Notes under the pieces: model-generated | What the model saw: only the letters and a program-made list of their open reading frames with translations | Databases searched by the model: none | Told to the model about the DNA's origin: nothing | In this document: positions 39,914-64,000 of the stretch, in pieces | Layout of the letters: each line of letters opens with the position of its first letter | Position numbering within the stretch: position 1 is the first letter of the stretch | Program-made: the position numbers and the translations under genes | NCBI GenBank assembly: GCA_050273025.1 | Contig: CP158635.1 | Location: 20,522,001-20,586,000 of the forward strand | DNA from: Cenococcum geophilum | Lineage: Eukaryota | DNA: 64,000 bases | Reading direction: 5' to 3'

Positions 39914-42423
39914 TTTTAGAAATTTAGCAACATTATTTATATAGGTAGTATTTATAAAGGCAAAGCTATTTACTCAGTATTAATAAGGGCGGTTATATTT
40001 ACTCTATATCTATTTTAAGATACTATATATAGAATAGTAAAATACTTTCTACCTATTAACTAACTAAGATTAATCTCTTTAAGACCAATAGGGTACCCTA
40101 GGGGGGAGTCTTTCCCTAGGGTTCTTTTTTTCCTAACTTATTAGATATTTCTTTTTCCTCTATCTCCTTAATATCGCCTATATCCTTTAGCTCTAGGTAA
40201 AATAAGGTAAAGTAACCCTTTTTATTATAGTTATAGTATATAGCCAAGGTAGGGTTAATTAGGGTATTGCAATAAGTACTAGTTAATAGTATAGTATATA
40301 GCTAGTTAGGCGAGGCTTACTAGTACATAGATATAACTAATTTTAGTATAAGAGCTATTATAGCTTATCTTCCTACTCTAGCTCCTATAGGTATAGCTAA
40401 TAAGTTTTAATCACTATAAGCCCTTTTTTATTAATTAGAACGGGTATTAATTTACTTTAGTTCTAAGTTAAGTAATAAATATTAGACTGTAAGTCTTTAG
40501 TAGGTTAGTAGGTCGTTTAAGGCTACTATAATCTTCTCTTATAGTTAAACCGTTAGCTTATTATATAGGTCTAAACAGTAGTTCTTAAGAGGAACCTAGC
40601 CTTTACTTACTAAGTATAAGAATTAAGTCTAAAACTTAGTAAAGGATTAGTTTAACTTTATTATTAAGCTATTATAGTTATAACATATATCCTATGCTTT
40701 ATTTAGGTTTATATATATAGCGGCTAAATACTATAGTATTTTACTAATAGATGTAAAGCGAATAGGGGAGTCGTCCTTAAATTTAGCTTAAAGGTAACGT
40801 TAGGCATCTCCTATAGTTTAACTAAAGAGGTAAAGCATCTTAGCTTTTTTAGAGGGGAAGTAGTTATAGTTAACGCGGAGTTTTCTTTATACTTAGATCC
40901 TCTAATTCTTAAAGGTAGGGTTTATCCCGTTAAATAGGGGTTAGGGGTTAAAAAGCTTAACAAACTTTAATTACTTTGTTATTATATCCATACTCCCTAG
41001 TATATTATATTTAGTAGAGTAAATAGGTTAGCTAGGGCTTTAAAAAAGGGAAGCTAGGCTATGTTATAGAGCTGTAAGGCTTTCTGGGATCTCTTATGGA
41101 GTCTCATATATATATTTTTAATTTAAGATAATTAGCTTTCTAGCTGGCCGTAAGGGCATAAATCTGCTTATATACGTCTATAAAGTTATTATTATCTTTA
41201 ACCTCTAATCCTAATTAGATCTTAGGTTCCTCTTAGGTAAAGGCAGCTCTTTTTAATAAGCTTACTTTAGGTGCCATTATTAGCTTTCTAAGGTTTATTA
41301 GTATTATACGCTTTAGTTTTAATTCTAGAGGTATAGGTCTAGTTCTATCTAGCTTATAAAGTAGGATATTATTAAGGCCTTCCTAGGTAGCGTAGAGTTA
41401 TTTTAGTGTCTAAGTATAGCGCGTTAACACGTTATTGCAGATAAAGTTTCTTTTAGGGTAGGATATTATTAAGGCCTTCCTAGGCAGTATAGGGTAAGCT
41501 TAGTATAATGTTATAGCTTATATAAATGCCTCTAAACTAAAGCTTGTAAAATACTATATTATAAAGATACTAAGCTAAAGAGAAAGAAAAGGGGGTTGCT
41601 AGGACCAAAGTAAATAAATATATAGTAGCAGCCGCTAAGGCGCTAGTAATAGGCGAGCCAATTATAGGTCGGCAGAATATAGCAGAATTTAGTAGGTGGT
41701 GTGCTACAGCGCCGTTATAAAGGTAGAAGTATAAGATATTTATTTATTAACTAAATTTAGTTAATATTAAGGAAAGGATCTAAATCTATAAAGGTAAGTA
41801 AGGAGAAAGATATAGGAATATTTAACTTAACACCATACTAAGACCCGTGATGCAGCTTTAACCTATAGGGGCTTAAAGCTAGGGGGGTATGTCGATCCAG
41901 GTCAGGTTTTAAAACGGGTTTCCTTACCGCCATCTTACTACCATCTCGGTCAGCAACTCGGTCAACCCCGGTTACCGACATAGTCTACTGCCCCTTCTTC
42001 CTTATATATATATAGAGGCTATAGAGCCACATTTAATAGACAGAGTCCTTATTCTTTACTTACTTATCGGTGCACGGACTACCGATCGACAGTATTATAA
42101 GCTTAATCGTGTAGGATCCCCCATAACTCCTACTAGAAAGCTTTTAAATAGCAATTAAATCGCCTTCGGGTTGCCATTGGGGCAGAGCTATACCGCTATA
42201 CTGCCAATCATATACAGGTATACCAATTGCCTTAGGAGATAATCGCGTACGATCTAGATAGCCCTAATAGGTAGCTACTGTCTCCCTTATCTCCTAATCT
42301 GTATCTACTACTATAAGCAGATGCGATCTGCCAGCGTCTACTGGTGTATCTACTCTGCAGTATACGCAATCGTTTTAGGTAAAGGTAGAGGTCCTAATCC
42401 GTATTTTAATACCATTATGCGGA

Positions 42424-42930
42424 CAGTGATCTTGTTAGATTGGAGTGAAGTGGATTTAACCCCCAAATCCACTCTATATACCAAAAAGCTAATAGAGCTC
42501 CAGGAACTCTAATACAGCTCCAGATCAAATATATACTATAAATAGTAAGTCTTAGCATTAGATCTAAATTAGACGTTAAGCAATAAATGAATAATAATAA
42601 TATAACTATAGTATAAGCCTCTTATGCTGCCGCTATTAGAGAAAAGAATTTATCAATTTATTTATACTATAAGAGTTAGTTTAATAGTACTTATAGCTAT
42701 TTAAAGACACCTTTATATCTTTTTTATCCTCTATATCCTATAGGTACTTACTATATTTAATCTTTAATAGTAAGAATACATCTAATATATTTACTATAGC
42801 TTTTTTCTATTCTATTAATTCTAACTAATACGCTAAGTAGTAGGGTTATATTAGATAGTACTTTAAGTTGAATTTAAAATAGTATATAATATCGTACTTT
42901 TTATTCTTATAGTGCTATTAAAGGTAGTGT
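42424..42930. mobile_element. Probable hAT-like terminus and degenerate remnant
   Basis: CAGTGATCTTGTTAGATTGGAGTGAAGTGGAT resembles 127-160; followed by RIPed AT-rich sequence. Right boundary uncertain. Confidence 0.4.
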
Positions 42931-43945
42931 ATTGTAACGTGTCCCGCACTACGTCGCCATACGGCCAAAAAGATAAAGAGTGATTGCGAACCTATTGCGA
43001 CTCTTGCGGGACCTAATATATATACTCTTACATATATATAGACATTTACCTTTAGCTTCTATATAATTACGCCATTTAGAAGCCTCTTTTCTATATTTTA
43101 GTAGTAGTTAACACCTTCTTTTTACTAATAGCTTCCTCTACTATATTATTATAATCCTTACTAAAGAACTCTACCTATTTATTAGCTACTACTTTAGTTA
43201 AAATATTTACTGCTTAAAGCGCCGTCTAAATAACTATAGTAATTTTAGCGTTTTTAGTATTAGTGGATATATTAATAGTTATAGCGGCCTTATATTTAAC
43301 ATTAAGATTAACCCTTTAAGCCTTTCGTTTATGCTTTAACTATACTTCTATTATTTTCTTTACTTCGCATTATTTATCTATATCGTTTACTTTCTTTAGG
43401 TATTATAGGATCCTTCGGATTTAATAACGCAATAATAGTAGTTAATTAATTAAGCCAGAAAGATTAAAGGCTATAATGTTTATAGCTTAATATATATTTT
43501 AAGCAATAAATACTTAGTATTTAAAGGCTCTAAATGGAATAGCTAGGATATTACTAAATATTTATATTTAGGATAAAGGCTTAAAAAATCTTTGGGCTAT
43601 TCTATAATATAAAGAGGTGTCGGTATAGGTAGTATAGGTTTAATAGTAAGGTCTACTTCTTTAGGCGCTTTAGAAGTGTTCTTTATAGTATTTTTAGGTG
43701 CTTTAGCTTTCCTCCTATGCGTTATGGCGCTAACTAAAATAAGAAATAATATCGGCTTTAAATGGCTTCGAGATATAGGCGACAGCGATACATTAGCATG
43801 CAGGATGGGTGTTCTCATGCGCGAGTATAGAAAAAAGGTTCAAACAGGCGAGGATTCGGTGGTTGATCATGGTTTCTGACATTTGATCGTCTTTTTCCGA
43901 AGCGACTGTAAGTAAATTTTGGGCGTTGGCGGTTGGCCCACCATA

Positions 43946-44454
43946 CAGCGATGTTCACGACCAGCTTCACCCCCCCCCCTTTAGCGAGCGCTGCGAGATT
44001 TCAAATTCGCTACGCGCATCCAATCTCGCTTGATTGCCGCCAGCTGTACATAGTAATTGTAGCGAAGCCATATGCTTGGCTGCAAGAACGTCGCGATCCC
44101 GCAGTGTCGTGATCTTCACCAGATATCGTGAGGTTTCCACCCGTATGATATTGCTAAATTTCATTGACCTCTCTGCAGAGACAGCGTTGTATTCGCGTTC
44201 TGGCGGCCACAAGGGAGGCGTAGTTACGGTGGGAGAAGGGGGAGAAGAGGAAGCGTACGTCTTTAATTTAATTCCCCTAGCCAACCAAGGCGTTTCTCTA
44301 GGGCAACCAAAAAGGTCCTTGCGTGTGGCTACAGCCGTTCGCTACAGGTACTACGTACGGCTAGTAGCAATTAAGCGAGGTTGGATACGCGTAGCGAATT
44401 TAAAATCTCGCAGCGCTTGCTAAAGGGGGGGGGTGAAGCTGGTCGTGAACATCA
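43946..44454. mobile_element. MITE with ~125-bp TIRs; the last 3 bp of its right TIR (CTG) are displaced to 56214-56216 by the Crypton array
   Basis: Left TA|CAGCGATGTTCACGACCAGCTTCACCCC...; right ...GGGTGAAGCTGGTCGTGAACATCA + CTG|TA. TA on both outer flanks. Confidence 0.85.
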
Positions 44455-44825
44455 ATAGTATGTCCACGGTTTGATTTGTATGGCTAAATTAGCCGCTAAG
44501 TCACAATTTGGTAGGCAGGAGGCCCGTGCGCTCAGCGCCATGTGGATATTACCCCATATTCACAGTCAATCTTTAATCGCCAGCAACGCCGTAGCAACGT
44601 CGCGCTCTTAACACCCGTTAAGTGGTATACGTAGAGCTGTCCAAGGGCTCTCTGCTCGCACTAGGATGGCAAGAATTGGCCGTAGGTTAATAGAGATATT
44701 TGCGTTTTAAATTAGGCGCTACTATTATATAAGTACCCTACTAAACTTATACTGCACTAAAATAAGCCCCTAAGGGGCTATAGATAAAGGCTTTAAGAGG
44801 ACTCCTTAAAAGTTAAATATATATA

Positions 44826-47050
44826 CTATTTTAAAGCTTTTTTACCTACTTAAAGCCGTTTATAAAGCTAATCTAGCGAGCACTATATCCGCTTCTGCTG
44901 TTAATTAACCTACTATATAGCCGCTTCCTTGCTAACCCTTTAGGCCTACGCAACCCGCCTAATTTCCTTAATAACCTTAAGCTATAGGGAGTACTATTAG
45001 AGCTCGTTCTACCAGCTAGCCTACTATTTACTACCCTATTTAGAATCTAGCGCTGCTATAAAAGGATTACCTCTAAGCCCTTTAGTCTACTCGCGCTAAA
45101 GGGCCTATATAGACTTTATTATACGGCATATACAATATATAGGCGGCTACTTAGGCGGCTGCTTGGGCTTAGGCCCTTACTATAGCTATAGCTATAGCTA
45201 TAGCTATAGCGGCGCTAGTAAAGGGGAAGCTATAGTGCTTACCTAGGCTAATATATTCTAGCTTAATTCCGTAATAGATAAAGGCGCTAGTAGACGTACT
45301 ATTGGTAGACGTACCGTTAGTAGGTATACTGTTAGACGTAAATATACGGATACTAAAGGGACCTTAAGCTAAAAGGTAAGGCTGCTAAATATAAGTAATT
45401 AAAGCTATAAAGACTGCGCCTACTAGGACTTGGCTATATAGTTAAATAACACCTATAGCTTGCGTACTTGGGCGTCTATAGTCTTTAGGCGGTTTATAAT
45501 AGCTAGTATAGCCTAGTAAAGTATTAATAGCTAGCTAGGGCCTTCTTCCTCCTACTATAGGTAGGCTTTAACCTTCCGCGTAAAGGGTAGATAGGCCTTA
45601 TACTAAAAAACTAGGTGGTTTTATATAGGGCTACTTAGGAATATCTTATAGAGGACTACTAAGTTCTATAGGATAACCTCCTAGAGATAAAATAGGAGGT
45701 TTATAGTGCCTATAGCCGTAAGGTTGTTAACCTAGCCAACCTAAAGGCTAAACTAACCCTTTTAGATGTTTAGCTTTAGCTAGATTATTAACAGTAGTAT
45801 ATTAAGGGGGGCAACGCTTGCCCTATAAATCTTAAAGCAGCCTATCTACGGCAAATAGCCGGCTATTGTCCGTATAAACTCCCGCGGTAGCGAGTTTAAG
45901 TAGTAGCTAACTATTTACTCCTAGTTTTACCTACTAGCGCGTTTAATCTGGTCCTTGCTAACCCCTTTTAGCTTCACTATTTTAGCGCTAGCGCTTCGCC
46001 TAATATAGGTCTTCTTTTATAAAAAGACGCTAATAGCCTAGAATGCCTTAGTAACCTACTCCCGCTATAAGTTATACGAGAAGGCCGTCTTACGGTCCCT
46101 AGCGCTGCTCTTAATTAGGCGGATATTATACTACGCTAACCACTTATTAAAGTCTAGGAACGGCTTATTACTAAGGTCCTAGTAGTATAGGAGGTAGAAA
46201 GCTAGCCCGCTAAGTATATAGATAAGCGGCTTCTTATTATATAGAGCTCTAATAGTCTTAAGGCGGCTATATTAGTTCTACTTACTAGCGTATATAGTAA
46301 ATATTAGGGGCATATAGCGCGTAGGACCTTCCCCCTTAAACTTAAAGGTAAATAGGTCTAAGATCTCGGCGGAGCGCCTATTACTACCGCGGGTAAATAT
46401 ATAGTAGCCTAGTAGGATATCTACAAGTATATAAAGGTAGTATTCTAGTAAGGAGTCTCTACAGGCCTATAGCTCGCGGCAAACACTCTTAAACTCGTCC
46501 TCTATATATCCATTAAGTAGTATATCCCTACCCTTATCTATAAACTACTCCTTTTCCCACTACGCGTCCCTCCGTTATAGAACCTTTAGGTAATCCCTAA
46601 TATTATCCTCCTACGGGGACTAGTAGCTATTTATCCTTATACCCTTCTACATCTAGTAGAAGTCTATTAGGGTAGTAATATAGCCATAAACTAAGCGCTA
46701 GGAGAGCCGCGTCTTATTCTAGGGCATATTATTACTAGCCTTACGGCTTTTTACTTTTAGTGGCTGGCCTATAACCTCCTTAATAAAAAAAAGAAGTAGC
46801 TTCTCTTCTATAACGGTATTACTATTATAGTACTACTTCCGCTTATAAAAGGCCTAGAAAAACGTGTATTAGTTATAAGTATACTACTCTATAAAGCACC
46901 TACCTACTTACCTTAAACTCTTTCTACTTCGGCTTATAATTTAAAGACGTATTTTTAGATCTCTCGGAATATATAAGGGTAAAGATACTCTACGCGTTAG
47001 CGCGTAGTTCGGCATTATTCGTAACGTTAATCTTTACATAACTAATTAAT
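44826..47050 (-). pseudogene. Crypton tyrosine recombinase with C-terminal GCR1_C-like domain, copy 1
   Basis: De-RIP motifs RPKNTS.NY.PKQKEF, DTVTEEKLLLFL, DKGRDTLLDGY, RRSAEISDL, KKTHIGRS, RRAGRWN, GCYLNSLPR, LWREWTEGL.GNPSVAALDSKWG. Intron 46854-46911. Start codon not resolved. Confidence 0.88.
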
Positions 47051-47765
47051 GGTATTTTTAAGATATATAGGACGCTGCTAGAGAAGCTACGCCCTAAGGG
47101 GGGGTTCCTATTTTCCTATATACGCAAATATAGACTAGGGAGAAAAGGTAGAGAAAGTATACCTACTAAATAAGTAACTTTACCGTATAGGGTAAATAAA
47201 CGGGCGTATGGCTGGGCTAATAGGCCAATAGTACGCGCGTATTAGCGACTTGATTAGTAGGGGTAAAGACATTTAAAGATGTCCACGGCTTGGCTATAGG
47301 CTTGGCCGTAGATATCCGCGAATGTTAATGGGGGTCGTATATATTATATACGGCTCAGCGACTAAGCGGGCGCTTAGCTAAGCCGTAAACACTAATAGTA
47401 TATCTACGGTTCGATTTATATAGCTAAATCAGCCGCTAAGTTATAATTTGGTAAGTAGGAGGCCTATACGCTTAGCGCTATATAGATATTACCCTATATC
47501 CACAGTCGATCTTTAATCGCCAGCAACGCCGCAGTAACGTCACGCTTTTAACACCTATTAAGCGGTATACGTAGAGCTGTTTAAGGGCTCTCTACTCGCA
47601 TTAGGATGGCAAGAATTAGCTATAGGTTAATAGAGATATTTACGTTTTAGATTAGGCGCCGCTATTATATAAGTACCCTACTAAACTTATACCGCACTAA
47701 AATAAGCCCCTAAGGGGCTATAGATAAAGGCTTTAAGAGGACTCCTTAGAAGTTAGATATATATA

Positions 47766-49990
47766 CTATTTTAAAGCTTTTTTACCCGCTTAAAGCCGTT
47801 TATAAAGCTAATCTAGTAAGCACTATATCCGCTTCTACTATTAATTAACCTACTATATAGCCGCTTTCTTACTAACCCTTTAGGCCTACGCGACCTACCT
47901 AATCTCCTTAATAACCTTAAGCTGTAGGGAGTACTATTAGAGCTTATTCTGCTAGCTAGCCTACTATCTACTACCCTATTTAGAATCTAGCGCTACTATA
48001 GAAGGATTACCTTTAAGCCCTTTAGTCCACTCGCGCTAAAGGGCCCGTATGGACTTTACTATATAATATATACAATATACAGACAGCTGCTTAGGCGGCT
48101 ACTTAGGCTTAGGCCCTTATTACGGCTATAGCTATAGCTATAGCTGCGGCGGCGCCGGTAAAGGGGAAGCTATAGCGCTTACCCGGGCCGATATATCCTA
48201 ACTTAATTCCGTGATAGATAGAGGCGCTAGTAGACGTACTATTAGTAAATATACCGTTGGTAGGTATGCTGTTAGACGTAAATATATAGATGCTAAAGGG
48301 ACCTTAAGCTAAAAGGTAAGGCTGCTAGATGTAAGTAATTAAAGCTATAAAGACTATGCCTACTAGAACTCGGCTATACAGTTAAATAACGCCTATAGCT
48401 CGCGTGCTCGGGCGTCTATAGTCTTTAGGCGGTCTATAATAGCCAGTATAGCCTAGTAGAGTATTAATAGCTAGCTAGGGCCTTCTTTCTCCTATTATAG
48501 GTAGGCTTCGACCTTCCACGTAAAGGGTAGATAGGCCTTATACTAGAAGACTAGGTGGTTCTATATAGGGCTACTTAGGAACATCTTACGGAGGACTACT
48601 AAGTCCTATAGGATAACCTCCTAAAGATAAAACAGGAGGTTTATAGCGCCTATAACTATAAGGTTGTTAACCTAGCTAACTTAAGGGCTAAACTAACCCT
48701 TTTAGATGTCTAGCTCTGGCTAGATCGTTAATAGTAGTATATTAGGGGGGGCAACGCTTGCCCTATAAATCTTAAAGCAGCCTATCTACGGTAAATAGCC
48801 GGCTATTATCTGTATAAACTCCTACGGCAGCAAGTTTAAGTAGTAGCCGACTATCTGCTCCTAGTTTTACCTACTAGCGTATCTAATCTAGTCCTTACTA
48901 ACCCCTTTTAGCTCTACTATCTTAGCGCTAGCGCTTCGCCTAATATAGGTCTTCTTCTATAAAAAGACGCTAATGGCTTAAAATGCTTTAGTAACCTACT
49001 TCCGCTATAAGTTATATAAGAAGGCCGTCTTATAGTCCCTAGCGCTGCTCTTAATTAGGCGGATATTATACTACGCTAACTACTTACTAAAGTCTAGGAA
49101 CGGCTTATCGCTAAGGTCCTAGTAGTATAAGAGGTAAAAAGCTAGCCTACTAAGTATATAGATAAGCGGCTTCTTATTATATAGAGCTCCGATAGTTTTA
49201 AGGTAGCTATATTAGTTCTACTTACTAGCGTATATAGTAAATATTAGGGGTATATAGCGCGTAGAACCTTTCCCCTTAAACTTAAAGGTAAATAGGTCTA
49301 AGATCTCGGCGGAGCGCCTATCGCCGCTATAGGTAAGTATATAGTGGCTTAGTAGGATATCTATAAGCGTATAGAGGTAGTATTTTGGTAAGGAGTTTCC
49401 GCGGGTCTATAGCTTGCGGTAAACGCTTTTAAACTCATCCTCTGTATATCCGTTAAGTAGCGTATCCCTACCCTTATTTATAAACTACTCCTTTTCCTAC
49501 TACGCGTCCCTCTATTATAGAACCTTTAGGTAATCCCTAACGTTATTCTCTTATAGGGACTAGTAGCTATTTATTTTTATACCCTTCTATATCTAGTAGA
49601 GGTCCGTTAAGGTAGTAATATAGCCGTAAACTAAGCGCTAGGAGAGCCGCGTCTTATCCTAAGGCACGTTATTACTAGCCTTACAGCTTTTTACTTTTAG
49701 TGGCTAGCCTATAACCTCCTTAACAAGGAAAAGAAGTAGCTTCTCTTCTATAATGGTATTGCTGTTATAGTACTGCTTCCGCTTATAAAAGGCCTAGGAA
49801 GATACGCGTTAGTTATAAGTATACTACTTTATAAAGTACCTACCTACTTACCTTAAACTCTTTCTGCTTTGGCTTATAATTTAGAGATATATTTTTAGGT
49901 CTTTTAGAACACATAAGGGTAAGGATACTCTACGCGTTAGCGCGTAGTTTAGTATTATTTACAACGTTAATCTTTACGTAACTAATTAAT
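47766..49990 (-). pseudogene. Crypton tyrosine recombinase, copy 2
   Basis: Colinear with copy 1 at +2940 bp. Confidence 0.88.
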
Positions 49991-50705
49991 GGCATTTTTA
50001 AGATATATAGGACGCTGCTAGAGAAGCTGCGCCCTAAGGGGGGGTTCCTATTTTCCTATATACGCAGATATAGACTAGGGAAGAGAGGTAGAGAAAGTAT
50101 ACCTACTAAATAAGTAACCTTACTGTATAGGGTAAATAAACGGGCGTATGGCTGGGCTAATAGGCCAATAGTACGCGCGTATTAGCGACTTAATTAGTAG
50201 GGGTAAAGACATTTAAAGATGTCCACGGCTTAGCTATAGGCTTGGCCGTAGATATCCGCGAATGTTAACGGGGGTCGTATATATTACGTGCGGCTCAGTA
50301 ACTAAGCGGGCGCTTAGCTAAGCTGTAAACACTAATAGTATGTCTATGGTTCGATTTGTATGGCTAAATCAGCCGCTAAGTCATAATTTAGTAGGCAGGA
50401 GGCCCGTGCGCTTAGCGCTATATAGATATTACCCTATATCTACAGTCAATCTTTAATCGCCAGCAACGCCGCAGCAATGTCGCGCTCTTAATACCCGTTA
50501 AATAGTATGCGTAGAGCTGTCCAAGGGCTCTTTACTCGCACTAGGATGGTAAGAATTAGCCATAGGTTAATAGAGATATTTGCGTTTTAAATTAGGCGCC
50601 GCTATTGTATAAGTACCCTACTAAACTTATACCGCACTAAAATAAGCCCCTAAGGGGCTATAGATAAAGGCTTTAAGAGGACTCCTTAAAAGTTAAATAT
50701 ATATA

Positions 50706-52930
50706 CTATTTTAAAGCTTTTCTACCCGCTTAAAGCCGTTTATAAAGCTAATCTAGCAAGTACTATATCCGCTTCTACTGTTAATTAACCTACTATATAG
50801 CCGCTTCCTCGCTAACCCTTTAGGCCTACGCGACCCGCCTAATCTCCTTAATAACCTTAAGCTATAGGGAGTACTATTAGAGCTCGTTCTACCGGCCAGC
50901 CCGCTATTTACTATCCTATTTAGAATCTAGCGCTGCTATAGAAGGATTACCTCTAAGCCCTTTAGTTTACTCGCGCTAAAGGGCCTATATAGACTTTATT
51001 ATACGGCACATATAATATACGGGCGGCTACTTAGGCGGCTGCTTGGGCTTAGGCCCTTACTACGGCTATAGCTATAGCTATAGCTGCGGCGGCGCCAGTA
51101 AAGGGGAAGCTATAGTGCTTACCTAGGCTAATATATTTTAGCTTAATTCCGCAATAGATAAAGGCGCTAGTAGACGTACTATTGGTAGACGTGCCGTTAG
51201 TAGATATACCGTTAGATATAAATATACGGATGCCGAAGGGACCTTAAGCCGAAAGGTAAGGCTACTAGATATAAGTAATTAAAGCTATAAAGACTGCGCC
51301 TACTAGGACTTAGCTATATGGTTAAATAACGCCTATAGCTTACGTACTTGGGCGTTTATAGTCTTTAGGCGGTCCGTAATAGCTAGCACGGCTTAGTAGA
51401 GTATTAATAGTTAACTAGGGCCTTCTTCCTCCTACTATAGGTAGGCTTTAACCTTCCGCGTAAAGGGTAAATAGGCCTTATACTAGAAGACCAGGTGGTT
51501 TTATATAGGGCTACTTAGGAATATCTTATAGAGGACTACTAAGTCCTATAGGATAACCTCCTAGAGATAAAATAGGAGGTTTATAGCGCCTATAGCCGTA
51601 AGGTTGTTAACCTAGCCGATTTAAAGGCTAAACTAACCCTTTTAGACGTCTAGCTCTAGCTAGATCGTCAACAGTAGTATATTAGGGGGGGCGACGCTTG
51701 CCCTACAAATCTTAAAGCAGCCTATTTGCGGCGAATAGCCGGCCATCGTCCGTATAAACTCCCGTAGTAGCAAGTTTAAGTAATAGCTAACTATTTACTC
51801 CTAGTTCTACCTATTAGCGCGTTTAATCTGGTCCTTGCTAACCCCTTTTAGCTTTACTATTTTAGCGCTAGCGCTTTGCCTAATATAGGTCTTCTTTTAT
51901 AAAAAGACGCTAATAGCCTAGAATACCTTAGCAACCTACTCCCATTATAAGTTATACAAAAAGGCCGTCTTACGGTCCCCAGCGCTGCTCTTAATTAGGC
52001 GGATATTATATTACGCTAACTACTTACTAAAGTCTAGGAACGGCTTATTGCTAAGGTCCTAGTAGTATAGGAGGTAGAAAGCTAGCCCGCTAAGTATATA
52101 GATAAGCGGCTTCTTATTATATAGAGCTCTAATAGTCTTAAGGCGGCTATACTAGTTCTACTTACTAGCGCGTATAGTAAATATTAGGGGTATACAGCGC
52201 ATAGGACCTTCCCCCTTAAACTTAAAGGTAAATAGGTTTAATATTTCGGCGGAGCGCCTATTACTACCGCGGGTAAGTATATAGTAGCCTAGTAGGATAT
52301 CTATAAGTATATAAAGGTAGTATTCTAGTAAGGAGTCTCTGCAGGCCTATAGCTCGCGGTAGATACTCTTAAACTAGTCCTCTATATATCTATTAAGCAG
52401 TATATTCCTACCCTTATCTATAAACTACTCCTTTTCCTACTACGCGTCCCTCCGTTATAGAACCTTTAGGTAATCCCTAATATTATCCTCCTACAGAAAC
52501 TAGTGGCTATTTATTCTTATACCCTGTTATATTTAATAGAAGTCTATTAGAGTAGTAATATAGCCGTAAACTAAGCGCTAGGAGAGCCGCGTTTTGTCCT
52601 AGGGCATATTATTACTAGCCTTACGGCTTTTTACTTTTAGTAGCTAGCCTATAACCTCCTTAATAAGGAAAAGAAGTAGCTTCTCTTCCGTAACGGTATT
52701 ACCGTTATAGTACTACTTCCGCTTATAAAAGGTCTAGAAAAACGTGTATTAGTTATAAGTATACTACTCTATAAAGCACCTACCTACTTACCTTAAACTC
52801 TTTCTACTTCAGCTTATAATTTAAAGACGTATTTTTAGGTCTCTCGAAATATATAAGGGTAAAGATACTCTACGCGTTAGCGCATAGTTCGGCATTATTT
52901 GCGACATTAATCTTTACGCAACTAATTAAT
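50706..52930 (-). pseudogene. Crypton tyrosine recombinase, copy 3
   Basis: Colinear with copy 1 at +5880 bp. Confidence 0.88.
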
Positions 52931-53645
52931 GGCATTTTTAAGATATATAGGACGCTGCTAGAGAAGCTGCGCCCTAAGGGGGGGTTCCTATTTTCCTATA
53001 TACGCAGATATAGACTAGGGAGGAGAGGTAGAGAAAGTATATCTACTAGATAAGTAATTTTACCGTATAGGGTAAATAAACGGGCGTATGGCTAGGCCAA
53101 TAGGCTAATAGTACGCGCGCATTAGCGACTTGATTAGTAGGGGTAAAGATATTTAAAGATGTCTACGGCTTAGCTATAGGCTTGGCTATAGATATCCGCG
53201 AATATTAATAGGGGTTATATATATTACGTGCGGCTTAGCAACTAAGCGGGCGCTTAGCTAAGCCGTAAACACTAATAGTATATCTACGGTTTAATTTATA
53301 TAGCTAAATCAGCCGCTAAGTTATAATTTGGTAGGTAGGAGGCCCGTGCGCTTAGCGCTATATAGATGTTACCCTATATCCACAGTCGATCTTTAATCGC
53401 TAATAACGCCGCAGTAACGTCGCGCTTTTAATACCTATTAAGCGGTATGCATAGAGCTGTCTAAGGGCTCTCTACTCGCACTAGGATGGCAAGAATTAGC
53501 TATAGGTTAATAGAGATATTTACGTTTTAGATTAGGCGCCGCTATTATATAAGTACCCTACTAAACTTATACCGCACTAAAATAAGCCCCTAAGGGGCTA
53601 TAGATAAAGGCTTTAAGAGGACTCCTTAGAAGTTAGATATATATA

Positions 53646-55870
53646 CTATTTTAAAGCTTTTTTACCTATTTAAAGCCGTTTATAAAGCTAATCTAGCGAG
53701 CACTATATCTACTTCTACTATTAATTAACCTACTATATAGCCGCTTCCTTACTAACCCTTTAGGCCTACGCGACCTACCTAATCTCCTTAATAACTTTAA
53801 GCTGTAGGGAGTACTATTAGAGCTTATTCTGCTAGCTAGCCTACTATTTACTACCCTATTTAGAATCTAGCGCTACTATAAAAGGATTACCTTTAAGCCC
53901 TTTAGTCTACTTGCGCTAAAGGGCCTGTACGGACTTTACTATATAGCATATACGATATACGGGCGGCTGCTTAGGCGGCTGCTTAGGCTTAGGCCCTTAC
54001 TGCGGCTATAGCTGTAGCTATAGCTACAGCGGCGCCAGTAAAGGGGAAGCTATAGTGCTTACCTAGGCCAATATATCCTAACTTAATTCCGTAATAGATA
54101 AAGGCGCTAGTAGACATACCATTAGTAAATATACCGTTGGTAGGTGTGCTGTTAAACATAAATATATAGATACTAAAGGGACCTTAAGCTAAAAGGTAAG
54201 GCTGCTAGATGTAAGCAATTAAAGCTACAAAGACTGTGCCTACTAGAACTCGGCTATATAGTTAAATAATGCCTATAGCTCGCGTGCTTAGGCGTCTATA
54301 GTCTTTAAGCGGTCTATAATAGCTAGCACGGCCTAGTAGAGTATTAATAGCTAGCTAGGGCCTTTTTCCTCCTACTATAGGTAGGCTTCGACCTTCTGTA
54401 TAAAGGGTAGATAGGCCTTATACTAGAAGACTAGGTGGTTCTATATAGGGCTACTTAGGAATATCTTGTGGAGGACTACTAAGTCCTATAGAATAACCTC
54501 CCAAAGATAAAATAGGAGGTTTATAGCGCCTATAGCTATAAGGTTATTAACCTAGCTAACTTAAGGGCTAAACTAACCCTTCTAGACGTCTAGCTCTGGC
54601 TAGATCGTCGACAGTAGTATATTAGGGGGGGCAACGCTTGCCCTATAAATCTTAAAGCAGCCTATCTACGGTAAATAGCCGGCTATTGTCTGTATAAACT
54701 CCTACGGCAGCGAGTTTAAGTAGCAGCCGACTATCTGCTTCTAATTTTACCTACTAGCGTATTTAATCTGGTCCTTACTAACCCCTTTTAGCTCTACTAT
54801 CTTAGCGCTAGCGCTTCGCTTAATATAGGTCTTCTTCTATAAAAAGACGCTAATGGCTTAAAATACCTTAATAACCTACTTCCGCTGTAAGTTATACGAG
54901 AAGGCCGTCTTATAGTCCCTAGCGCTGCTCTTAATTAGGTGGATATTATACTACGCTAACTACTTACTAAAGTCTAGGAACGGCTTATTGCTAAGGTCCT
55001 AGTAGTATAAGAGGTAGAAAGCTAGCCCACTAAGTATATAGATAAGCGGCTTCTTATTATATAGAGCTCTAATAGTTTTAAGGTAGCTATACTAGTTCTA
55101 CTTACTAGCGTATATAGTAAATATTAGGGGTATATAGCGCGTAAAACCTTCCCCCTTAAATTTAAAAGTAAATAGGTCTAAGATCTCGGCGGAGCGCCTA
55201 TTGCCGCTATAGGTAAGTATATAGTGGCTTAGTAGGATATCTATAAGCGTACGGAGGTAGTATTTTAGTAAGGAGTTTCCGCGGGCTTATAGCTTGCGGT
55301 AGACGCTCTTAAACTCGTCCTCTATATATCCGTTAAGTAGCGTATTCCTACCCTTATTTATAAACTGCTCCTTTTCCCGCTACGCGTTCCTCTATTATAA
55401 AACCTTTAGGTAATCCCTAACATTATTCTCCCGCGGGGACTAGTAGCTGTTTATTTCTATACCCTTCTACATCTAGTAGAGGTCCGTTAGGGTAGTAATA
55501 TAGCCGTAAACTAAGCGCTAGGAGAGCCGCGTCTTATCCTAGGGCACGTTATTACTAGCCTTACGGCTTTTTACTTTTAGTGGCTAGCCTATAACCTTCT
55601 TAACAAGGAAAAGAAGTAGCTTCTCTTCTATAATGGTATCGCCGTTATAGTACTGCTTCCGCTTATAAAAGGCCTAGGAAGACACGCGTTAGTTATAAAT
55701 ATACTACTTTATAAAGCACCTACCTACTTACCTTAAACTCTTTCTGCTTTGGCTTATAATTTAGAGACATATTTTTAGGTCTCTTGGAACGCATAAGGGT
55801 AAAGATACTCTACGCGTTAGCGCGTAGTTCGGCATTATTTGCGACGTTAATCTTTACGCAACTAATTAAT
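53646..55870 (-). pseudogene. Crypton tyrosine recombinase, copy 4
   Basis: Colinear with copy 1 at +8820 bp. Confidence 0.88.
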
Positions 55871-56481
55871 AGCATTTTTAAGATATATAGGACGCTGCTA
55901 GAGAAGCTGCGCCCTAAGGGGGGGTTCCTATTTTCCTATATACGCAGACATAGACTAGGGAGGAGAGGTAGAGAAAGCATACCTACCGGATAAGTAACCT
56001 TACCGCATAGGGTAATAAACGGGCGCACGGCTGGGCCAATAGGCCAATAGTACGCGCGCATCAGCGACTCGATTAGTAGGGGTAAAGACATTCAAAGATG
56101 TCCACGGCTTGGCTGCAGGCTCGGCCGTGGACATCCGCGAATGTCGACGGGGGTCGTATGTATCACGTGCGGCTCAGCGACTGAGCGGGCGCTCAGCCGA
56201 GCCGTGAACACCACTGTAGTTGATCGAAGGCCGAACTTCTCGCTTTGCTCCCCAAGAACCTCCACTAGTGGAGATCCTACCAAAGCTAAACTCATCCTTG
56301 ATCAAGGAACCTACAGCCTCGTATCCATTATTTTGGACGCTCTTACATACGGCCTGGATTCTGGGAACTAGAACGCAAGACTAAAAGCCCAGCCAATTCG
56401 CGCAAGTCGCAAAGCCATACCCATATATCACCGTTCCTGAGCACCTTTTAGAAGACCGCAAGTGGATTTCGACTAGGGGAA

Positions 56482-57651
56482 ATGATGGAAGAAGACGATG
56501 ATGAGTTCTACGGTCATGATGGGACGGCCAATGCTCCTGGCAGCGGTGATCAAAGCAAGCAGGACGCCTCTGCCAACGGCCAGGCCAATAACAAGGACGA
56601 CAACTTGGACGAAGAGCTCGAGTCTGGAGAGGAAGAAGAAGAGGGCAGTGATTCAGTATGCGCCGACGGCTCTATCTTTAGCTCTCACATTTACTGACTG
56701 TTTTTTCAGGATATCGAGATCATCACTGATCGACCCCAAGCTCAAAAGCCTATATCGTGAGTTCTCCCAATCTCAATCACCCCAAATTTTCAGCATACCT
56801 CTTGGAGTTACCTTGTAAGAAGTACTAACTATCATAGCCAATCCACGGTTGACTCTATAAAAGACCCCCGCGCTACCGACCAAACCTCGAGTCGCTCGCA
56901 AACACACCAGCAACAATCCGCACCCAAAGCCACCCTCTCAGCTCCCACCGCCCCTTCCGCACCACAGCAGCCAGGCTCCAGTTATCCCGAAGTGCGCACC
57001 TCCACAATTGACGTCAATGCCGACCCAGTTTACCCACCCGTCGGCAAGCCCATCTCCCAAACCGACATCGACGCCGACCTCGCGGAGAACACGAAGCCAT
57101 GGCGACTTCCTGGCGCTGACCAATCCGACTACTTCAACTATGGCTTTGACGAATTCACCTGGGAGATGTACCGGCAGCGACAAGCGACCATGACCGGCAC
57201 GCTCGCGACCCAGAAAGCCGAAACGGCGCAATTCCAGCAAATGTTCGGCGGCGCGACGTCCGTCCCCTCGACCTCTCCCGCCCCGCCCGTCCCCGGCGCG
57301 CCCACGGGCCCCGCTGCCCAGCAGGCCAGCATGGCGAACCCCATGGCCGCGATGATGGGCATGCCCGGCATGCCCGGCAGCCAGGAGGAGATGGCCACCG
57401 CGATGCAGGCTGTCATGATGCAGCAGGGGATTACGGATCCCAGCCAGCTGGATTTTAATACCTTCATGGCGAGCTTTCAGCAGCAGATGGCGGGCGGTGG
57501 CATGCCCGGACAGCAGGCGCCGCAGCAGCAGCAACAGGCGCAGGCACAAGGCTATGGACAGGGCTACGGGAATTATGCGCAACAGCAAGGCGGAGGACAG
57601 CAGTATGGTGGAAGGGGACAAGGTGGACGCGGTGGAGGGAGAAGATGGTAG
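56482..57651 (+). CDS. FIP1: Pre-mRNA polyadenylation factor Fip1 (exons 56482-56655, 56710-56756, 56838-57651)
   Basis: Acidic N-terminus, DIEII motif, Fip1 motif KPWRLPGADQSDYFNYGFDEFTWEMY, Q/G- and RGG-rich tail. GT-AG introns with branch sites keep the frame. Confidence 0.93.
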
Positions 57652-57990
57652 TTTAGGGAAAGGTTTCTTGCATTGGATGGCGTTTTTTGGTTGGATGGGT
57701 GTAGGATACCTAAAGCTGGGTTTGGTGGTCGCTTCAACGAGTCTTCCGTCGAAAGATTCACTACAGATGTCACCGAACGGCATCTAAAAGAAATATAAGA
57801 ATAAATCCGGTCATTAATTTCACAATTCAATGACACTAAGATGTCAATATGATGGGTGCGCACAGGAAGTGGCTCCTCCCGGCAGTTCCAGCTTAACATG
57901 ACCCTAGTCAAATACAGTCTAGAACAAACGCCGAGTTTTGTCTGTTTCCCATATAAGAGAATCCTCTAGGCATATTAGTGTCTTCAGTGT

Positions 57991-59092
57991 TTATTCCCCT
58001 ATCTCATCTCCGCCTCCAAACGCGCCCCCAGGTATCCGTCCCTCATTCAGCTCCTTCTCCAGTCTCGTGATCTCCGACAGGCTCTTAGCATTCCTAATCA
58101 GCCCCTCCACTCGCTTCTTCTCCTTGTCCGTCAGCTTGACGCGGGCGACCTTCGAGCCGGGCGCGGAGCCGTTGACGTCAGATGGGATGTCGAAGGTGCG
58201 AGTTTTGATGCCCATAATCTGATTAGGAATGTAGTTAGTTGGAGATTTGGACGAGAACAACACGAAGGAAATGAAGTGGGGGAGCACGTACCTTAGAAGC
58301 TAACGCTGAAGGTTCATTAGCCGTGCCAAATAGCTCCTTGGCCTGGCTGCGTTCGGAATCTTTGACCTTTTGGAAGTCGAGGAAGCGGACTGAGGGGCAG
58401 CGGTAGAGGACCCAATAGCGGTAATGCTGTCGAAAGATTCATATTATCAGTATGCTTCTAAATGTCAAACCCGTGATCTGCGAACTGGCCAACAGACGTC
58501 TGGAGTCTTATTTCAGGAAATGGAAAGCTCACTTCTCTACTTGTAACCGGATTCTGTAACAGGACCAAATGTGTCAGATTCAGAAATCCCGCCAACGGAT
58601 CCAGATCCGCGAGTTCAGAAATCTGGTTCTCAGTCAAGACCAGCGTCGTCAGGTGGGGTATCGACTTTGAAAGAGCTGGATGGATGACTGAGATGCGGTT
58701 ACGTGCAAGTAGGAGGGTGCGCAGACGGGGACTGAGCGGGAAGTTGGATAGTTGTGAAATGTCATTGTCGGTAAAGTCGATCGCGTCTTGGTCCTATACG
58801 GTCCCAGAAGAACCGGAAGTCAGAGACAGCATTACAATCGTAGTCCGGTCTAGAACAGCGTGCGAGGCAGTATAATGAGAGGGATTCAACGTACCTTCGC
58901 AGCGCCCAAGTTCTCGATAGCGGGGATCTTGTGTCCTGTAGCCTCGCAAAAGAGAATTGATATTAATGCAGCTCAAAAAAGCGTAGTATCTGCCCCTTTC
59001 AGCGAGTACGCACCTCGTAGGTCCAGCTCGCGTTCTGTGAGTGGGTTGATGTAGGAGAGGGAGTTCTGGATTAGGTCCGCTGTTAGCCTCAT
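57991..59092 (-). CDS. LEA1: U2 snRNP protein A' (leucine-rich repeat), multi-exon
   Basis: MRLTADLIQNSLSYINPLTERELDLRG..HKIPAIENLG, DQDAIDFTDNDI, HYRYWVLYRCPSVRFLDFQKVK, C-terminal LIRNAKSLSEITRLEKELNEGRIP; several GT-AG introns. Confidence 0.92.
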
Positions 59093-59409: not shown

Positions 59410-62400
59410 CTATTGGAACACGTAAATTATGCCAGACCTGTCCACCGATATAATCATACCATAAGGATACTCCAATAAAGCTACATCAAGAATATTATCT
59501 AGATGACTTCTCAACAGGTGTTGCTGCTGCAAGGAAATAATAGACGACCTAGACGGCTTTGTAGAACCCCTCCTCGCTGACGTATTAGGGGTTCGGCTGC
59601 TATCTCGGACGTTGGAAGTCGACGACTGCTGGCCTTGTGGCTGTGACAGCAGCTCAGTAACAACAATGGTCTCCTGATTCGGCTGGCTGATGTTGTATTG
59701 CGGCTTAGACTCCTCTAGTTCTAGGCCGCTGACAATCATGGACGCTTCATAATGAGCAGTATCCCAGTATCGGACTTTCCAATCAGGGCCCGCAGTGACT
59801 AGGAAGAATTGTTTTGGATCGCTTCCATCGTCGGGAGGTTGTGTGCCTATCGCGAGGGATCGGATACCACGATTGATGCTTGTGCTACTTGTAGGCTCCA
59901 GTGATGTAGCGAAGCGGCCTAGCATGCCACCTGCCCTTTCTTCATCCACATCAATCAATGTCATGCTTTTGGGGCTATCCTTGCTCAAACCTGTGCGGTA
60001 GATTTCCTTGCAGAGGAGCTTCTCTAGATCCCAGACCGTTACTTCACCTTGGCCGGTACCGCCTGCGATGTATACCTTGCCTTTGCGTGATCGAACTGGC
60101 TGAAGAATTATCCGATGTATAGGAGATGAGCCGTGGAAGCCCCAGGCTTTAAGCCGCAGCTTGAATCGAAGATCCCAGAGATCTATCACACCATGAGTAG
60201 TGCCTAGAAGTAGCCAGTGATGTCGTTTATCGATACAAAAACAGGTTGGTGTACCGTGATGCAGAGGGTTCTGAAGCACATAGAGCTCGGCCATTGTTCT
60301 CAACTCCAAGGCAATAACTCGCGAAGTATTGGTGGCCAAAACCAACGTTGACTGAGTTTCGCTCTTGTAGTGCTCAGACCAAACAGCATACTCGCCATGA
60401 CGAAGTTGGTGTTGCCGTAGAACTTTCAATTTTCCGTATTTCGTCCCACCTTGCACTTGGCTGTAATCCACTTTGACCACGTGGATACTGCCATCAGTAC
60501 CCGTACATACGAAACAGTAGGTATTTTCGACAAACACGAGGCTTGAGGCTTTCGTACTCTCAGCCAGTCTGTAAGTTTGTCGGGATCGATGTGCAATATT
60601 TCGTTCCAAACGCCCAGAGTCCCAGATTTTGACGGAACCGTCGTCAGACCCAGTAATAAAGAACGAGTGATCTGGCGCAACAAGAACACGGCTAATAGCA
60701 GCGGTATGTTCGCCCATCATAGCCACTAGTGTTCCTTCAGGGCGCCATGGATTGGTGGATGAGGATGCTTGACCGTTACCACGCTTAATGGGTAGACGCC
60801 TGCTATTTGGTTGTATCTGCATCCCAAACTCAACCTCATCAACTGGATAGTTCTCTAAATAAAGAGAGTCTAGTAGTTTCAAAATACTAGGATCATTGCC
60901 AGTATAGTTATGCGCATCTTTGTACTTGATCCTCGAAGGGCTCTTCCGGTGCTGTTCTTGGGCAACTGCAAGCTGGGACTGCTGCCGACCTCTTGCCATG
61001 AAGTCGCGTTGGCTTGCACCGTCAACCTTACCGAAAGCATTCGTCGAAGTTGTTCCAGTCTCAGGAAGAGCCTTGTTGTCGTTGGGATTTAACAGACTTA
61101 TGGCGCTATTCCTATGCCGAACAACATGACTATGTTCGCCCAGGGTGATACCGCCGATGGAGCTAACTGGAGATTGTCCGCCAGGAGAATCATTGCCTTT
61201 GGGTACCGATCTAGGTACTTGAAGAGAGGTACGACGAAGTTCAACATCAGAGGAAGGCGAGTCTTGAGCTGATCGTAGTGCGCCAGGCGATGACGATAGG
61301 CTAGGTAGAGTCGGTGTAGAACTCGTTCTCATGCCAGTCTCACCTCGTACTAGTTTGTCGACCTGAGTATTTGCATGAAGCCTCTTTCGATGAGACAGGT
61401 GACCATCCTCAGAGGTGGACGCGTCAAGCAAAGCGTCAGCAATTGTACGGGGCTGCCTCTCCTCGTTTGCTGAAGTTTCCCCATCTTTGACTTGTGCTTT
61501 TTCAAAGACCTCCTTATCATTATCAAACAAAACTGTTTGAGGAATGATATCTAGGTCTTTTAATGCAATGATGTTGTTGAAATTTGAGGGGACCGTATCG
61601 GGATCGTCTTTTCGTCTGCGGTGAGCTACCCGCCAAATGAACTCTCTGAGAGCTACAAGCTTAAACTCATCTTCAACGCCCATACCAGCATTCCGCAGAC
61701 GAGTGAGCCATTGGTCATCCTCTTCATTCTTCGACAATCGGCTGAGAGCTTTTGGCCCAAGGTTTTTGGCAGAAACTGTTAGTATTGAATCTTCAGCAGA
61801 TCCAAAAGAGAAGGTTCGTTGCTGCTTCGCTGGTATCCAGAACAGCCCTTTCTCAGATTTCATGGCCCAGGTCGAAGCCATATCTAAAATCAGTCTTGGT
61901 AATGGCTTCTTCAGCGAATCTAGAAGCCTCAATTCAGAAAGATCCGAAGGAAGCACTTTAAGATAGGTTTTGATGAGAGGAAGGACAATGCTGTGGGTAT
62001 CAGCAATCGACAGAAACTTTGCAGCAGAGGATATAAAATGTGCGGCGGCTTCTCGAATCCAAATGTTCGGATGCATTGTGAAGCGTCCGACGATATCAAC
62101 CAATTCCCAGGTCTTGGATCGCTGGAACAAACCAAGCTCTGCCATAGATGAGAACGATCTCAGGACCCTTTCCACAACAAACTCCTCCGGGTCCGTCAGT
62201 GCCTGAACCATTAACGGCAGAATAAATTCTTCAAGACTTGGACCCCCAACATATATTGCTACACCAACGATAGTCTCGAAGAAAGCGCATTTCAACATCC
62301 AATCGCGGTCATTGAGGTAGGTATTCAGATGGCTTAGTATAACGTCGTTCGCTTTAGTGCTTCCAAAAAATACACACAAAGTCGAGACAGATCCTAGCAT

Positions 62401-64000
62401 AGCTCGTCGGACAGCCGAGTCGCTGTCTGTCAAAAGGGCTTTAGTCTGGACTTCAAATTGTGATACAAGGTCGTCTCGAGCTACATCAAAAAGAGTTTGA
62501 TACACAGAATGACTCATACTGTCATCTTCAGCTTCAGGATCGCTGGTGGGTAAAGACCCGTCAGCACGTAGTGCCTGCATCATATCCAAGAACCTAGATG
62601 CGGTGCTGGCCAATGTAGCCATACAAGAGGCATATGTCATTCTTACCAGGGCACTTGGTTTCGTCGGCGATCCAGGCGCGAAGGGCTGGAGTCTTGGAAG
62701 TATGTATTCTGGGAAGATGTATGCGTTAATTGGCGAGACAACGGAGACAAGAGCAAGCTGTTTCACAGTAAGTTTGCTAAAAATAAAGAAAATAAAGTGA
62801 AGTTGGACGAAAAGGGATACGTACAAGCTGAGTCAAAGTGCGAAGTGCTGTTACCTTTACTAGGTCTGATTTATCGTTCAAGAGTGTCATCACGTATGGT
62901 AGAATACGATCAAGTTTTGCCTCATCTGTGGTTCTTTCCGCGAAGGCTAGCAATAGTTCACATGCGCGAATGCGAGCAGATGCCCTAGCTGTGCCCCTTA
63001 GGGAGGATACAACAATAGTGAGGAAGATGAGAGTTCCGTCATCTACCGATTTTCCTGAAGTAGGCGAGGCTTGGTGCTGGTAGTTCGGTATGTTGATAAA
63101 AAGTGGGAAGAGGTCATTGTCTAATTTGGAGGTAGGTTGGGGTGCTCTGCTTGGCTCTTTTCCATTCTCCTGACCCAAGAAGTATGAGATCTTGTCGAAG
63201 TCGTTATAGATCTTCTCAATCCGGTCATCGGATTCTCCAAGGTTCTCGGTTCCTGCAGTCACTGGTCTTCGACCTGAGGTAGGATCCGTAATGGTGTACA
63301 TGTACTGCTGAAGAAATCCGTAGAAGTAATCTGGGAAGGCTTTGTGACGCCAGAAGTTTAAATACTCGTCCGCTGAATATCTCGACTCAGGCTCTAATTG
63401 GATCATGTGGGAGACCATTTCGCGAATATCTTTATCGTGAATTTTGCTGAGGTGTGTGTGTTCAGGCTCATACTCACCTTGGCGATATTTAAACAGCTGG
63501 CTCAATGAGAAGATAGGGGTTTCTAGGAATAACTCCGCAATCACACACCCAACGCTGAAAATATCCATCGCCCAGGTGACACCTGTCTCTCCGGGCTGTG
63601 CTCCAGCAGATAAAAACCTCTCCGGTGCCAAATAGCATGTGCGACGCCCAGAGGTGTCAAAATAAAAAGAAAAGTCTGCAGGATTGTCCTCTGGGAGATA
63701 AGTAGGTTTAAACGACGAAGAAAAGTCTGATAGATACAACCAGTTCCAGGAAGTAACTAATGAATTTTCCGTCTTTATGTCACCGTGATATATGTTCCGA
63801 GCATGACAATCACGGACAGCACATAGTAGTTGGAACGAGAGCCATTTCTTCTCAATGTCCTCGAGAAATGGCCGAGTACTGTGTGCATCAGCTGCAGTTC
63901 AAGACAAATATTTGAAAACATACCTCATGCGATCATATAACGAACTATGAATGTATTGCCGGACTAAATATCCATTTGTGCTCGTTTCCAAGATGCGGTG
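59410..64000 (-). CDS. VPS15: Vps15 / phosphoinositide 3-kinase regulatory subunit 4 (kinase-HEAT-WD40); 5' end outside the window
   Basis: HGDIKTEN, DFSSSFKPTYLPEDNPADFSFYFDTSGRRTCYLAPERF, HEAT region (NDVILSHLNTYLND), WD40 repeats. Introns near 62757-62822 and ~63880-63923. Confidence 0.96.

Follow-up and report, generated by a model that had tools for sequence, protein, structure and literature searches.

A tandem CryptonF array inside a miniature element

The window analysed here, a 64,000-nucleotide stretch of the Cenococcum geophilum genome, contains a head-to-tail array of four CryptonF units at 44455-56213, with periods of 2940, 2940 and 2939 bp. Units 1 to 4 occupy 44455-47394, 47395-50334, 50335-53274 and 53275-56213, and each carries its gene on the minus strand. 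The array is lodged in a non-coding Tc1/mariner-type miniature element of about 516 bp (43944-44454 and 56214-56218). On its left side, this element has a TA at 43944-43945 followed by a left inverted repeat that starts at 43946 with CAGCG; its arms, of about 120 bp, span 43950-44066 and 44338-44453. The inverted repeats begin CAG[C/T]G and TA stands on both sides, the pattern of Tc1/mariner elements. Because the CTG of the right repeat and the TA resume at 56214-56218, past the array, the array sits 3 bp inside the repeat tip. Contigs from four runs match the miniature element in large numbers, and to judge by loose ends at 44089 and 44123, a longer parent of it may exist elsewhere.

Positions 1-43600 of the window are AT-rich over a long stretch (GC 0.24-0.42), show strand-skewed blocks and contain no Crypton copy; other mutated repeats presumably make up this part. 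The right flank is GC-normal and carries a gene for a Vps15-like kinase/WD40 protein (phosphoinositide 3-kinase regulatory subunit 4; 59410-63898, minus strand), whose closest named homologues are from Dothideomycetes (Lepidopterella, 70%; Mytilinidion, 63%). No second Crypton family was found in the window, in the fetched metagenome contigs or in a scan of viral contigs.

The four units are 88-93% alike in pairwise comparison, and 504 of their 507 variable columns are transitions (C/T or A/G), the mark of repeat-induced point mutation. By context, 200 of the 504 transition columns lie in CpG and 162 in CpA/TpG; this excess of CpG over CpA/TpG sets the array apart from Neurospora-type repeat-induced mutation, whose classic bias is to CpA alone. 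Units 1 and 3 have 67 mutated columns in common and units 2 and 4 have 74, versus 4-15 for the remaining pairs, which gives the array a higher order of period 2 and indicates that its last doubling was the duplication of an already mutated dimer, mutated again afterwards.

The Crypton family has very many diverged copies in contigs of four sequencing runs: the 16.5-kb stretch 42000-58500 drew 8843 contigs from run X1, versus a single long contig on the unique flank. No empty site, in the form of a joint spanning the whole array, was found among the 15 of 78 joints listed for reads and contigs on 42000-58500. One 954-nt contig from run X5, which bears another strain label, matches 56217-57103 and has 67 unlike letters before that match. 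Its departure from the window coincides exactly with the outer edge of the mariner-type element, a weak hint that this strain may be without the element and the array at the locus.

Remnants of the recombinase gene

With stops read as X, the minus strand matches the Pfam profile NDC10_II at E=6e-42 (6.1e-42; residues 249-597, profile positions 5-316 of 317), and the mutated window copy gives a weak match to the C-terminal DNA-binding domain GCR1_C (E=0.013) that lies below the cut-off. A protein search returned 36 homologues of 538-788 aa, and all 36 contain both NDC10_II (PF16787) and GCR1_C (PF12550), the pair also borne by the intact homologues of 571-788 aa. The best homologue, P0001 (628 aa), is colinear with the unit from first to last residue, with no intron and no frameshift. 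Aligned with it, the remnant in unit 4 spans 53649-55547 on the minus strand (about 633 codons), and equivalent minus-strand remnants lie near 44829-46727, 47769-49667 and 50709-52607. The ends of the unit agree with the domains. The unit begins ATAGT... and finishes ...ACACCA, without terminal inverted or long direct repeats, and a short sequence is common to one terminus and the target: CA, extending up to ACAYCA and more. Judged by domains and ends, the repeat unit is a CryptonF transposon, which bears out the Crypton assignment made in a preliminary description of this DNA.

No open frame was found in the array units. Each of the four remnants has 66-71 in-frame stops; in all four, the presumed HxxR histidine (H241 in P0001) has become tyrosine and W267 is a stop, and the tyrosine Y276 is retained. 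On these assignments of catalytic positions in P0001 (HxxR, Y276), made by inference, the R-H-R-Y set is not intact in the window copies. The stops and the loss of the histidine in all units mean that the window copies are dead, which is no argument against their membership of CryptonF. Restoring the frame by placing C or G at mutated columns failed, leaving 67-80 stops per frame with four copies and 31-44 with 27 copies, and no intact Crypton copy was present in 51 metagenome contigs.

A two-armed core at joints and junctions

Every joint between units consists of a 10-nt arm, a 7-bp spacer and an inverted arm. The arms, CCGTGAACAC and the reverse complement of ATGTCCACGG, match at 8 of 10 positions; both mismatches are transitions and both are present in every copy. 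The preliminary description had put together such a site from the least mutated ends, GCCGTGAACACCA at 56201-56213 and ATAGTATGTCCACGGT at 44455-44470, both of which stand in the sequence as it gave them, and had noted mutated versions at three joints, which we locate at 47383-47409, 50323-50349 and 53263-53289 (plus strand). At the joint between units 1 and 2, the core comprises arm d (47383-47392), the spacer (47393-47399), whose first two bases are a mutated CA, and inverted arm e (47400-47409); the mutated cores at 50323-50349 and 53263-53289 belong to the joints between units 2 and 3 and units 3 and 4. The core pattern has four matches in the window, versus none expected from 100 shuffles: the three mutated joints and a hybrid at 44443-44469.

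This hybrid is the left junction of the array, an attL-like site on the plus strand in which a target arm, TCGTGAACAT (44443-44452), and the common CA (44453-44454) are followed by the element's ATAGT (44455-44459) and its arm ATGTCCACGG (44460-44469). The target origin of the first arm is evident from the partner inverted repeat at 43950-43962 and from unoccupied repeat tips in other contigs. The attR-like right junction (56202-56218, plus strand) has the element arm CCGTGAACAC (56202-56211) and the common CA (56212-56213), followed by the last three bases of the mariner-type repeat, CTG (56214-56216), and the TA target duplication (56217-56218).

Inverted repeats of the joint's quality (10-nt arms, spacer of 5-9, match of at least 8/10) number 25 in the de-mutated unit, versus 11.5 +/- 4.4 in 200 shuffles, so that a random point falls within one fairly often. 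We therefore rejected the joint's inverted repeat as stand-alone evidence. The lox-like geometry of the preliminary description, inverted arms around a 7-bp spacer, recurs at every joint with its 8/10 arms, but the inverted repeat by itself is within chance; what lends the core significance is the repeated occurrence of the arm motif, together with where other copies end and insert.

Ends of other copies

According to the preliminary description, the site would be refuted if other copies ended at different positions. We scanned metagenome contigs with a mutation-tolerant purine/pyrimidine pattern of the right end; as the end patterns demanded the arm and CA, the scan covers copies with ends of this kind. 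It returned 62 unique right ends in 51 contigs, 26 of them tandem joints and 36 ends against flanking DNA, with 56 of the 62 coming from one metagenome; the window's own locus is absent from the fetched contigs. All 36 flank ends diverge immediately after ...ACAC[C/T]A, so that the site withstands this check. The 26 tandem joints, found in many contigs, are identical in structure to those of the window, and ATAGT precedes the right arm in 38 of 39 left ends. BLAST added three ends that had escaped the patterns: one truncated where its contig stops, a right end that is two bases short, and a left end of the ordinary kind.

Several individual ends deserve mention. In metagenome contig L031 (~616-770), a 150-nt right-end fragment stops at ...AAACAC without the CA, the sole end found that does not diverge after CA. 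In L010, the left end near 690-703 starts at the right arm, with TGAGGTA in place of CAATAGT, and the right end is normal; this copy fits neither junction model. Short right-end fragments of about 70-400 nt (L026, L030, L018, L023 and others) are 94-98% identical to the de-mutated consensus, having probably escaped mutation because of their shortness, and two of them have a common breakpoint near unit position 2724.

Exchange is confined to CA

In all 36 right junctions the arm ends in C; a T stands there in 11 of 14 left junctions, and the window's own left junction also has T. Beyond CA, left junctions continue with element sequence and right junctions with target sequence. Because the target keeps its T and the element its C at the last arm base, the exchange is confined to CA, and both strands are joined within or at the edges of this dinucleotide. 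The crossover that the preliminary description placed at a CA shared with the target is thereby upheld.

The remaining five spacer bases differ between the partners, with CTGTA, AAATA and others in targets versus ATAGT in the element. The site thus has the two inverted arms around a 6-8-bp spacer that are found in loxP, FRT and lambda sites (here 10-bp arms matching at 8/10 and 7 bp at every joint), but it departs from their rule of spacer identity, as element and targets have only CA in common. Compared on these features, it resembles the attDOT/attB sites of CTnDOT more than loxP. No right arm was seen in the targets flanking the metagenome ends. Of the tyrosine-recombinase core architecture proposed earlier, element and targets therefore share the left arm and CA but neither the right arm nor the other five of the seven spacer bases, and the case for the 7-bp spacer and for a part played by the right arm is a geometric one.

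Insertion targets resemble the arm

In 22 of the 36 flank ends, the element is followed by CTG+TA and 22 different outer flanks, which places these copies, like the window array, 3 bp inside a Tc1/mariner repeat tip; not all 22 need be independent integrations. At least three miniature-element subfamilies (GTGAACAT, GTGCACAT and GTGTACAT) have been entered at this same base, as has a further TA-flanked CACTG tip. The contigs also contain eight unoccupied tips of the form ...GTCGTG.ACATCACTG+TA, with last bases ...ACAT[C/T]ACTGTA, under a pattern that matched a ninth, unrelated stretch as well. Between the mariner-type tip and the arm motif, 8-9 of 10 positions agree, and CA follows.

The other 14 of the 36 right ends lie outside mariner tips and are equally precise. 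Among six non-mariner left flanks, three are arm-like (TAAACATCA, CGAACATCA and CAATATCA) and three weakly so. The mariner-tip target and the arm-like nature of the target had no place in the preliminary description, and neither had the additional motif pairs beside the core that are described below.

The arm motif recurs around the joint

With at most one mismatch and on both strands, the arm motif CCGTG[G/A]ACA[T/C] has five matches in the de-mutated unit built from four copies and six in the 27-copy consensus. A seventh copy matches at 8/10 in the best copy, and at up to 9/10 if a T is taken as a mutated C. All copies fall between -115 and +111 of the exchange point. In 300 shuffles, the motif occurred 0.05 times on average and once at most, with none reaching three.

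The copies comprise one lone motif, a 6-bp-spaced pair, the joint pair (spacer of 7 bp) and, about 96 bp beyond the joint, a second pair spaced by 6 bp. Upstream of the joint, the least mutated cluster lies at 56098-56150 and comprises motif a (56098-56107, minus), motif b (56125-56134, plus), a 6-bp spacer and motif c (56141-56150, minus, one mismatch); motifs a and b together form a 39-nt near-palindrome. Equivalent clusters occur at 47279-47331, 50219-50271 and 53159-53211 in the other units. On the far side of the joint, the third arm pair spans 47480-47505, with motif f (47480-47489, plus, 8/10 in the best copy and up to 9/10 with its T counted as a mutated C), a 6-bp spacer and motif g (47496-47505, minus); it is found again at 44540-44565 and 50420-50445, and g alone at 53376-53385. 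Right-end fragments without mutation, from the metagenome contigs, bear the same cluster, and the joint-side stretch that contains it gives a much more stable single-strand fold than its shuffles (z=-4.87). The arm motif appears to behave like a recognition element.

A second small repeat, GCTCAGC, is present in three copies, with both orientations represented, at 56171-56200 (also at 47352-47381), between the arm cluster and the terminal arm, and a related GCT.AGC lies just inside the left end of the unit.

A proposed recombination site and its alternatives

We consider it probable that the joint is the recombination site of the CryptonF element, with the motif bound by its tyrosine recombinase, the flanking pairs acting as accessory sites and arrays arising through a site rebuilt at repeat tips. 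CCGTG[G/A]ACA[T/C] would then be the candidate binding element of the Crypton's own tyrosine recombinase. The two inverted copies 7 bp apart that straddle the circle or tandem joint would form the crossover core, and two further inverted pairs (6-bp spacers, about 77 bp away on one side and about 96 bp on the other) together with one extra copy would be putative accessory sites. A circle carrying the two-armed core would pair with an arm-like half-site followed by CA, and exchange at CA would insert the element; such a half-site and CA would be all that an integration target needs. The best half-site in the genome would be the tip of a Tc1/mariner-type repeat (...GTCGTGAACATCA, then CTG+TA), which could explain why most copies sit there. 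Integration at a tip would rebuild a two-armed site at the left junction, through which further circles could enter and produce tandem arrays, to be destroyed afterwards by repeat-induced C-to-T mutation.

The proposed site leaves a question about the number of exchanges. If the second strand were cut on the far side of the spacer, two exchanges 7 bp apart over heterology should leave a mismatch and hence 5-bp-shifted junctions in roughly half of the insertions, and such shifted forms account for none of the 36 right ends and at most one of the 14 left ends in the metagenome contigs. A possible answer, which we put forward tentatively, is a single homology-checked strand exchange at CA beside one target half-site, with the resulting four-way junction finished by replication or by host junction-cutting enzymes. 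On this proposal, the four-way junction would be unable to migrate into the unlike spacer; integron attC sites and the integration of CTX phage offer comparisons, and the palindrome-rich joint (z=-4.87) might act in folded form. A single exchange would explain the position of all 36 right junctions at CA with no shifted form, the copy gain of active Cryptons despite clean excision, as far as the cited part of the Chlamydomonas study reports it (PMC9977147), and the commonness of tandem arrays. It would likewise explain targets that have no right arm.

Goodwin and colleagues are said to have proposed that Cryptons recombine via a few bases common to the element end and the target, and accordingly only the short common sequence (ACAYCA or CA) might matter here, the inverted arm on the far side being a coincidence. 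The absence of a right arm from targets and the chance-level inverted repeat of the joint suit such a reading, and the portions of the literature cited here describe known Cryptons with only 4-6-bp terminal direct repeats (PMC3212892, PMC8969392). We nevertheless hold it to be unlikely, as the arm motif recurs five to seven times, only around the joint and in three arm-spacer-arm pairs, and targets resemble the arm over 8-10 bases, both at mariner tips and in two or three further cases. Moreover, the targets bear ACAT, the commonest form among the motif copies, and not the ACAC of the donor arm, which favours recognition by a protein over homology between donor and target.

Slightly less likely again, in our judgement, is that the motif marks real protein-binding but non-catalytic sites, either for GCR1_C or as promoter or autoregulatory elements, with the CA crossover specified otherwise. 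Four motif copies do lie 650-770 bp upstream of the gene start, on its 5' side, in a palindrome-rich region, and the protein has a separate DNA-binding domain; against this, the 3' end of the element has motif copies too, one of the copies directly adjoins the exchange point, and the targets mimic that very copy together with CA.

It is improbable, finally, that the joints and most copies are not tyrosine-recombinase products at all but the outcome of unequal crossing-over or duplication, for which the mutated dimer duplicated in this array (67 and 74 common columns versus 4-15) speaks, or, at mariner tips, of spread as a composite by a mariner transposase, in keeping with the retained TA on both sides and the 12/15 imperfect inverted repeat and with MarCry-1_FO, a Crypton inside a mariner element with TA duplications according to the account cited (PMC3212892), because the 26 tandem joints in many contigs have one structure, precision is no lower at the 14 of 36 ends outside mariner tips, and several miniature-element subfamilies are occupied at the same base, so that such processes account for later spread and not for the origin of the joint.

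Relation to known systems

CryptonF transposons were reportedly described by Goodwin et al. in 2003, and Cryptons are said to have been known since then; we know of no recombinase-binding site defined for them so far. In the literature that we searched, no paper came up that reports inverted arms or repeated binding motifs for the ends of Cryptons. What appears to be new here is the site architecture, for which we met no published account, along with the hot spot at mariner tips and a link to MarCry-type fusions. The proposed recombination site is a concrete, testable candidate for a poorly understood class of eukaryotic transposons, and it brings together an exactly placed crossover dinucleotide, a candidate binding motif of 10 bp laid out as core plus accessory copies, half-sites that serve as natural targets, and intact homologous proteins. 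A defined pair of eukaryotic tyrosine recombinase and site would be relevant to transposon mechanism, to the 'captain' enzymes of Starships and to genome engineering.

CryptonF elements pair an NDC10_II-type tyrosine recombinase with a GCR1_C domain, in the terms of the cited part of one survey (Kojima & Jurka 2011, PMC3212892), and Cryptons are described there and in a second partly cited account as generally low in copy number, with terminal repeats of 4-6 bp (PMC3212892, PMC8969392). The unit in the window, like known CryptonF elements, has a single protein with both domains, a length of about 3 kb, no terminal inverted repeats and a short sequence shared by end and target. A close parallel is the active CryptonF-1_cRei of Chlamydomonas, whose ends CACCG and targets CAYCG, as the cited section gives them, correspond to CACCA and CAYCA here with the same C/Y wobble (PMC9977147). 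In contrast to CryptonF elements as the cited passages describe them, the present family has inverted arms on either side of the joint and two additional arm pairs, a target likeness of 8-10 bases, a hot spot at Tc1/mariner tips, frequent tandem arrays (26 of 62 ends) and many diverged copies.

A bacterial system with a similar core layout is CTnDOT. Its integrase, IntDOT, works on a 7-bp overlap in which a conserved dinucleotide is joined to a 5-bp variable coupling sequence, between imperfect inverted arms, with donor and target arms alike at 8/10, according to the cited part of PMC2817482. The candidate Crypton site likewise has a dinucleotide beside the left arm, five variable bases and an arm-like target, and IntDOT is described in the cited portions as requiring identity only at the first exchange (PMC2817482, PMC2034462). 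IntDOT is, however, the integrase of a bacterial conjugative transposon, works with arm-type sites and host factors, and has no sequence relationship to the Crypton protein here. CTnDOT also exchanges both strands and leaves mismatched coupling sequences, whereas no shifted form was found here among 36 right ends.

A core of inverted motifs accompanied by extra copies bound by the same recombinase is known from FRT of the yeast 2-micron plasmid, which recombines two full sites without half-site integration and carries its accessory motifs as direct repeats confined to one side. The TnpI recombinase of Tn4430 also binds both a core pair and accessory motifs (PMC2847244, in the part cited), and its IRS, with a core of two inverted motifs and extra copies nearby, resembles the layout proposed here, where binding is putative. 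TnpI resolves or inverts between two full sites, again without half-site integration, and its accessory motifs, too, form direct repeats and lie to one side only.

For the association with a mariner-type element, the precedent is MarCry-1_FO of Fusarium oxysporum, which the cited text presents as a CryptonF inside a TA-flanked Tc1/mariner-type element (PMC3212892). MarCry relies for its movement on a DDE transposase that it encodes itself, whereas the partner here is non-coding and about 516 bp long, with the Crypton 3 bp from its tip. The mimicry of the Crypton arm by the mariner repeat tip suggests how Crypton-mariner fusions such as MarCry may arise.
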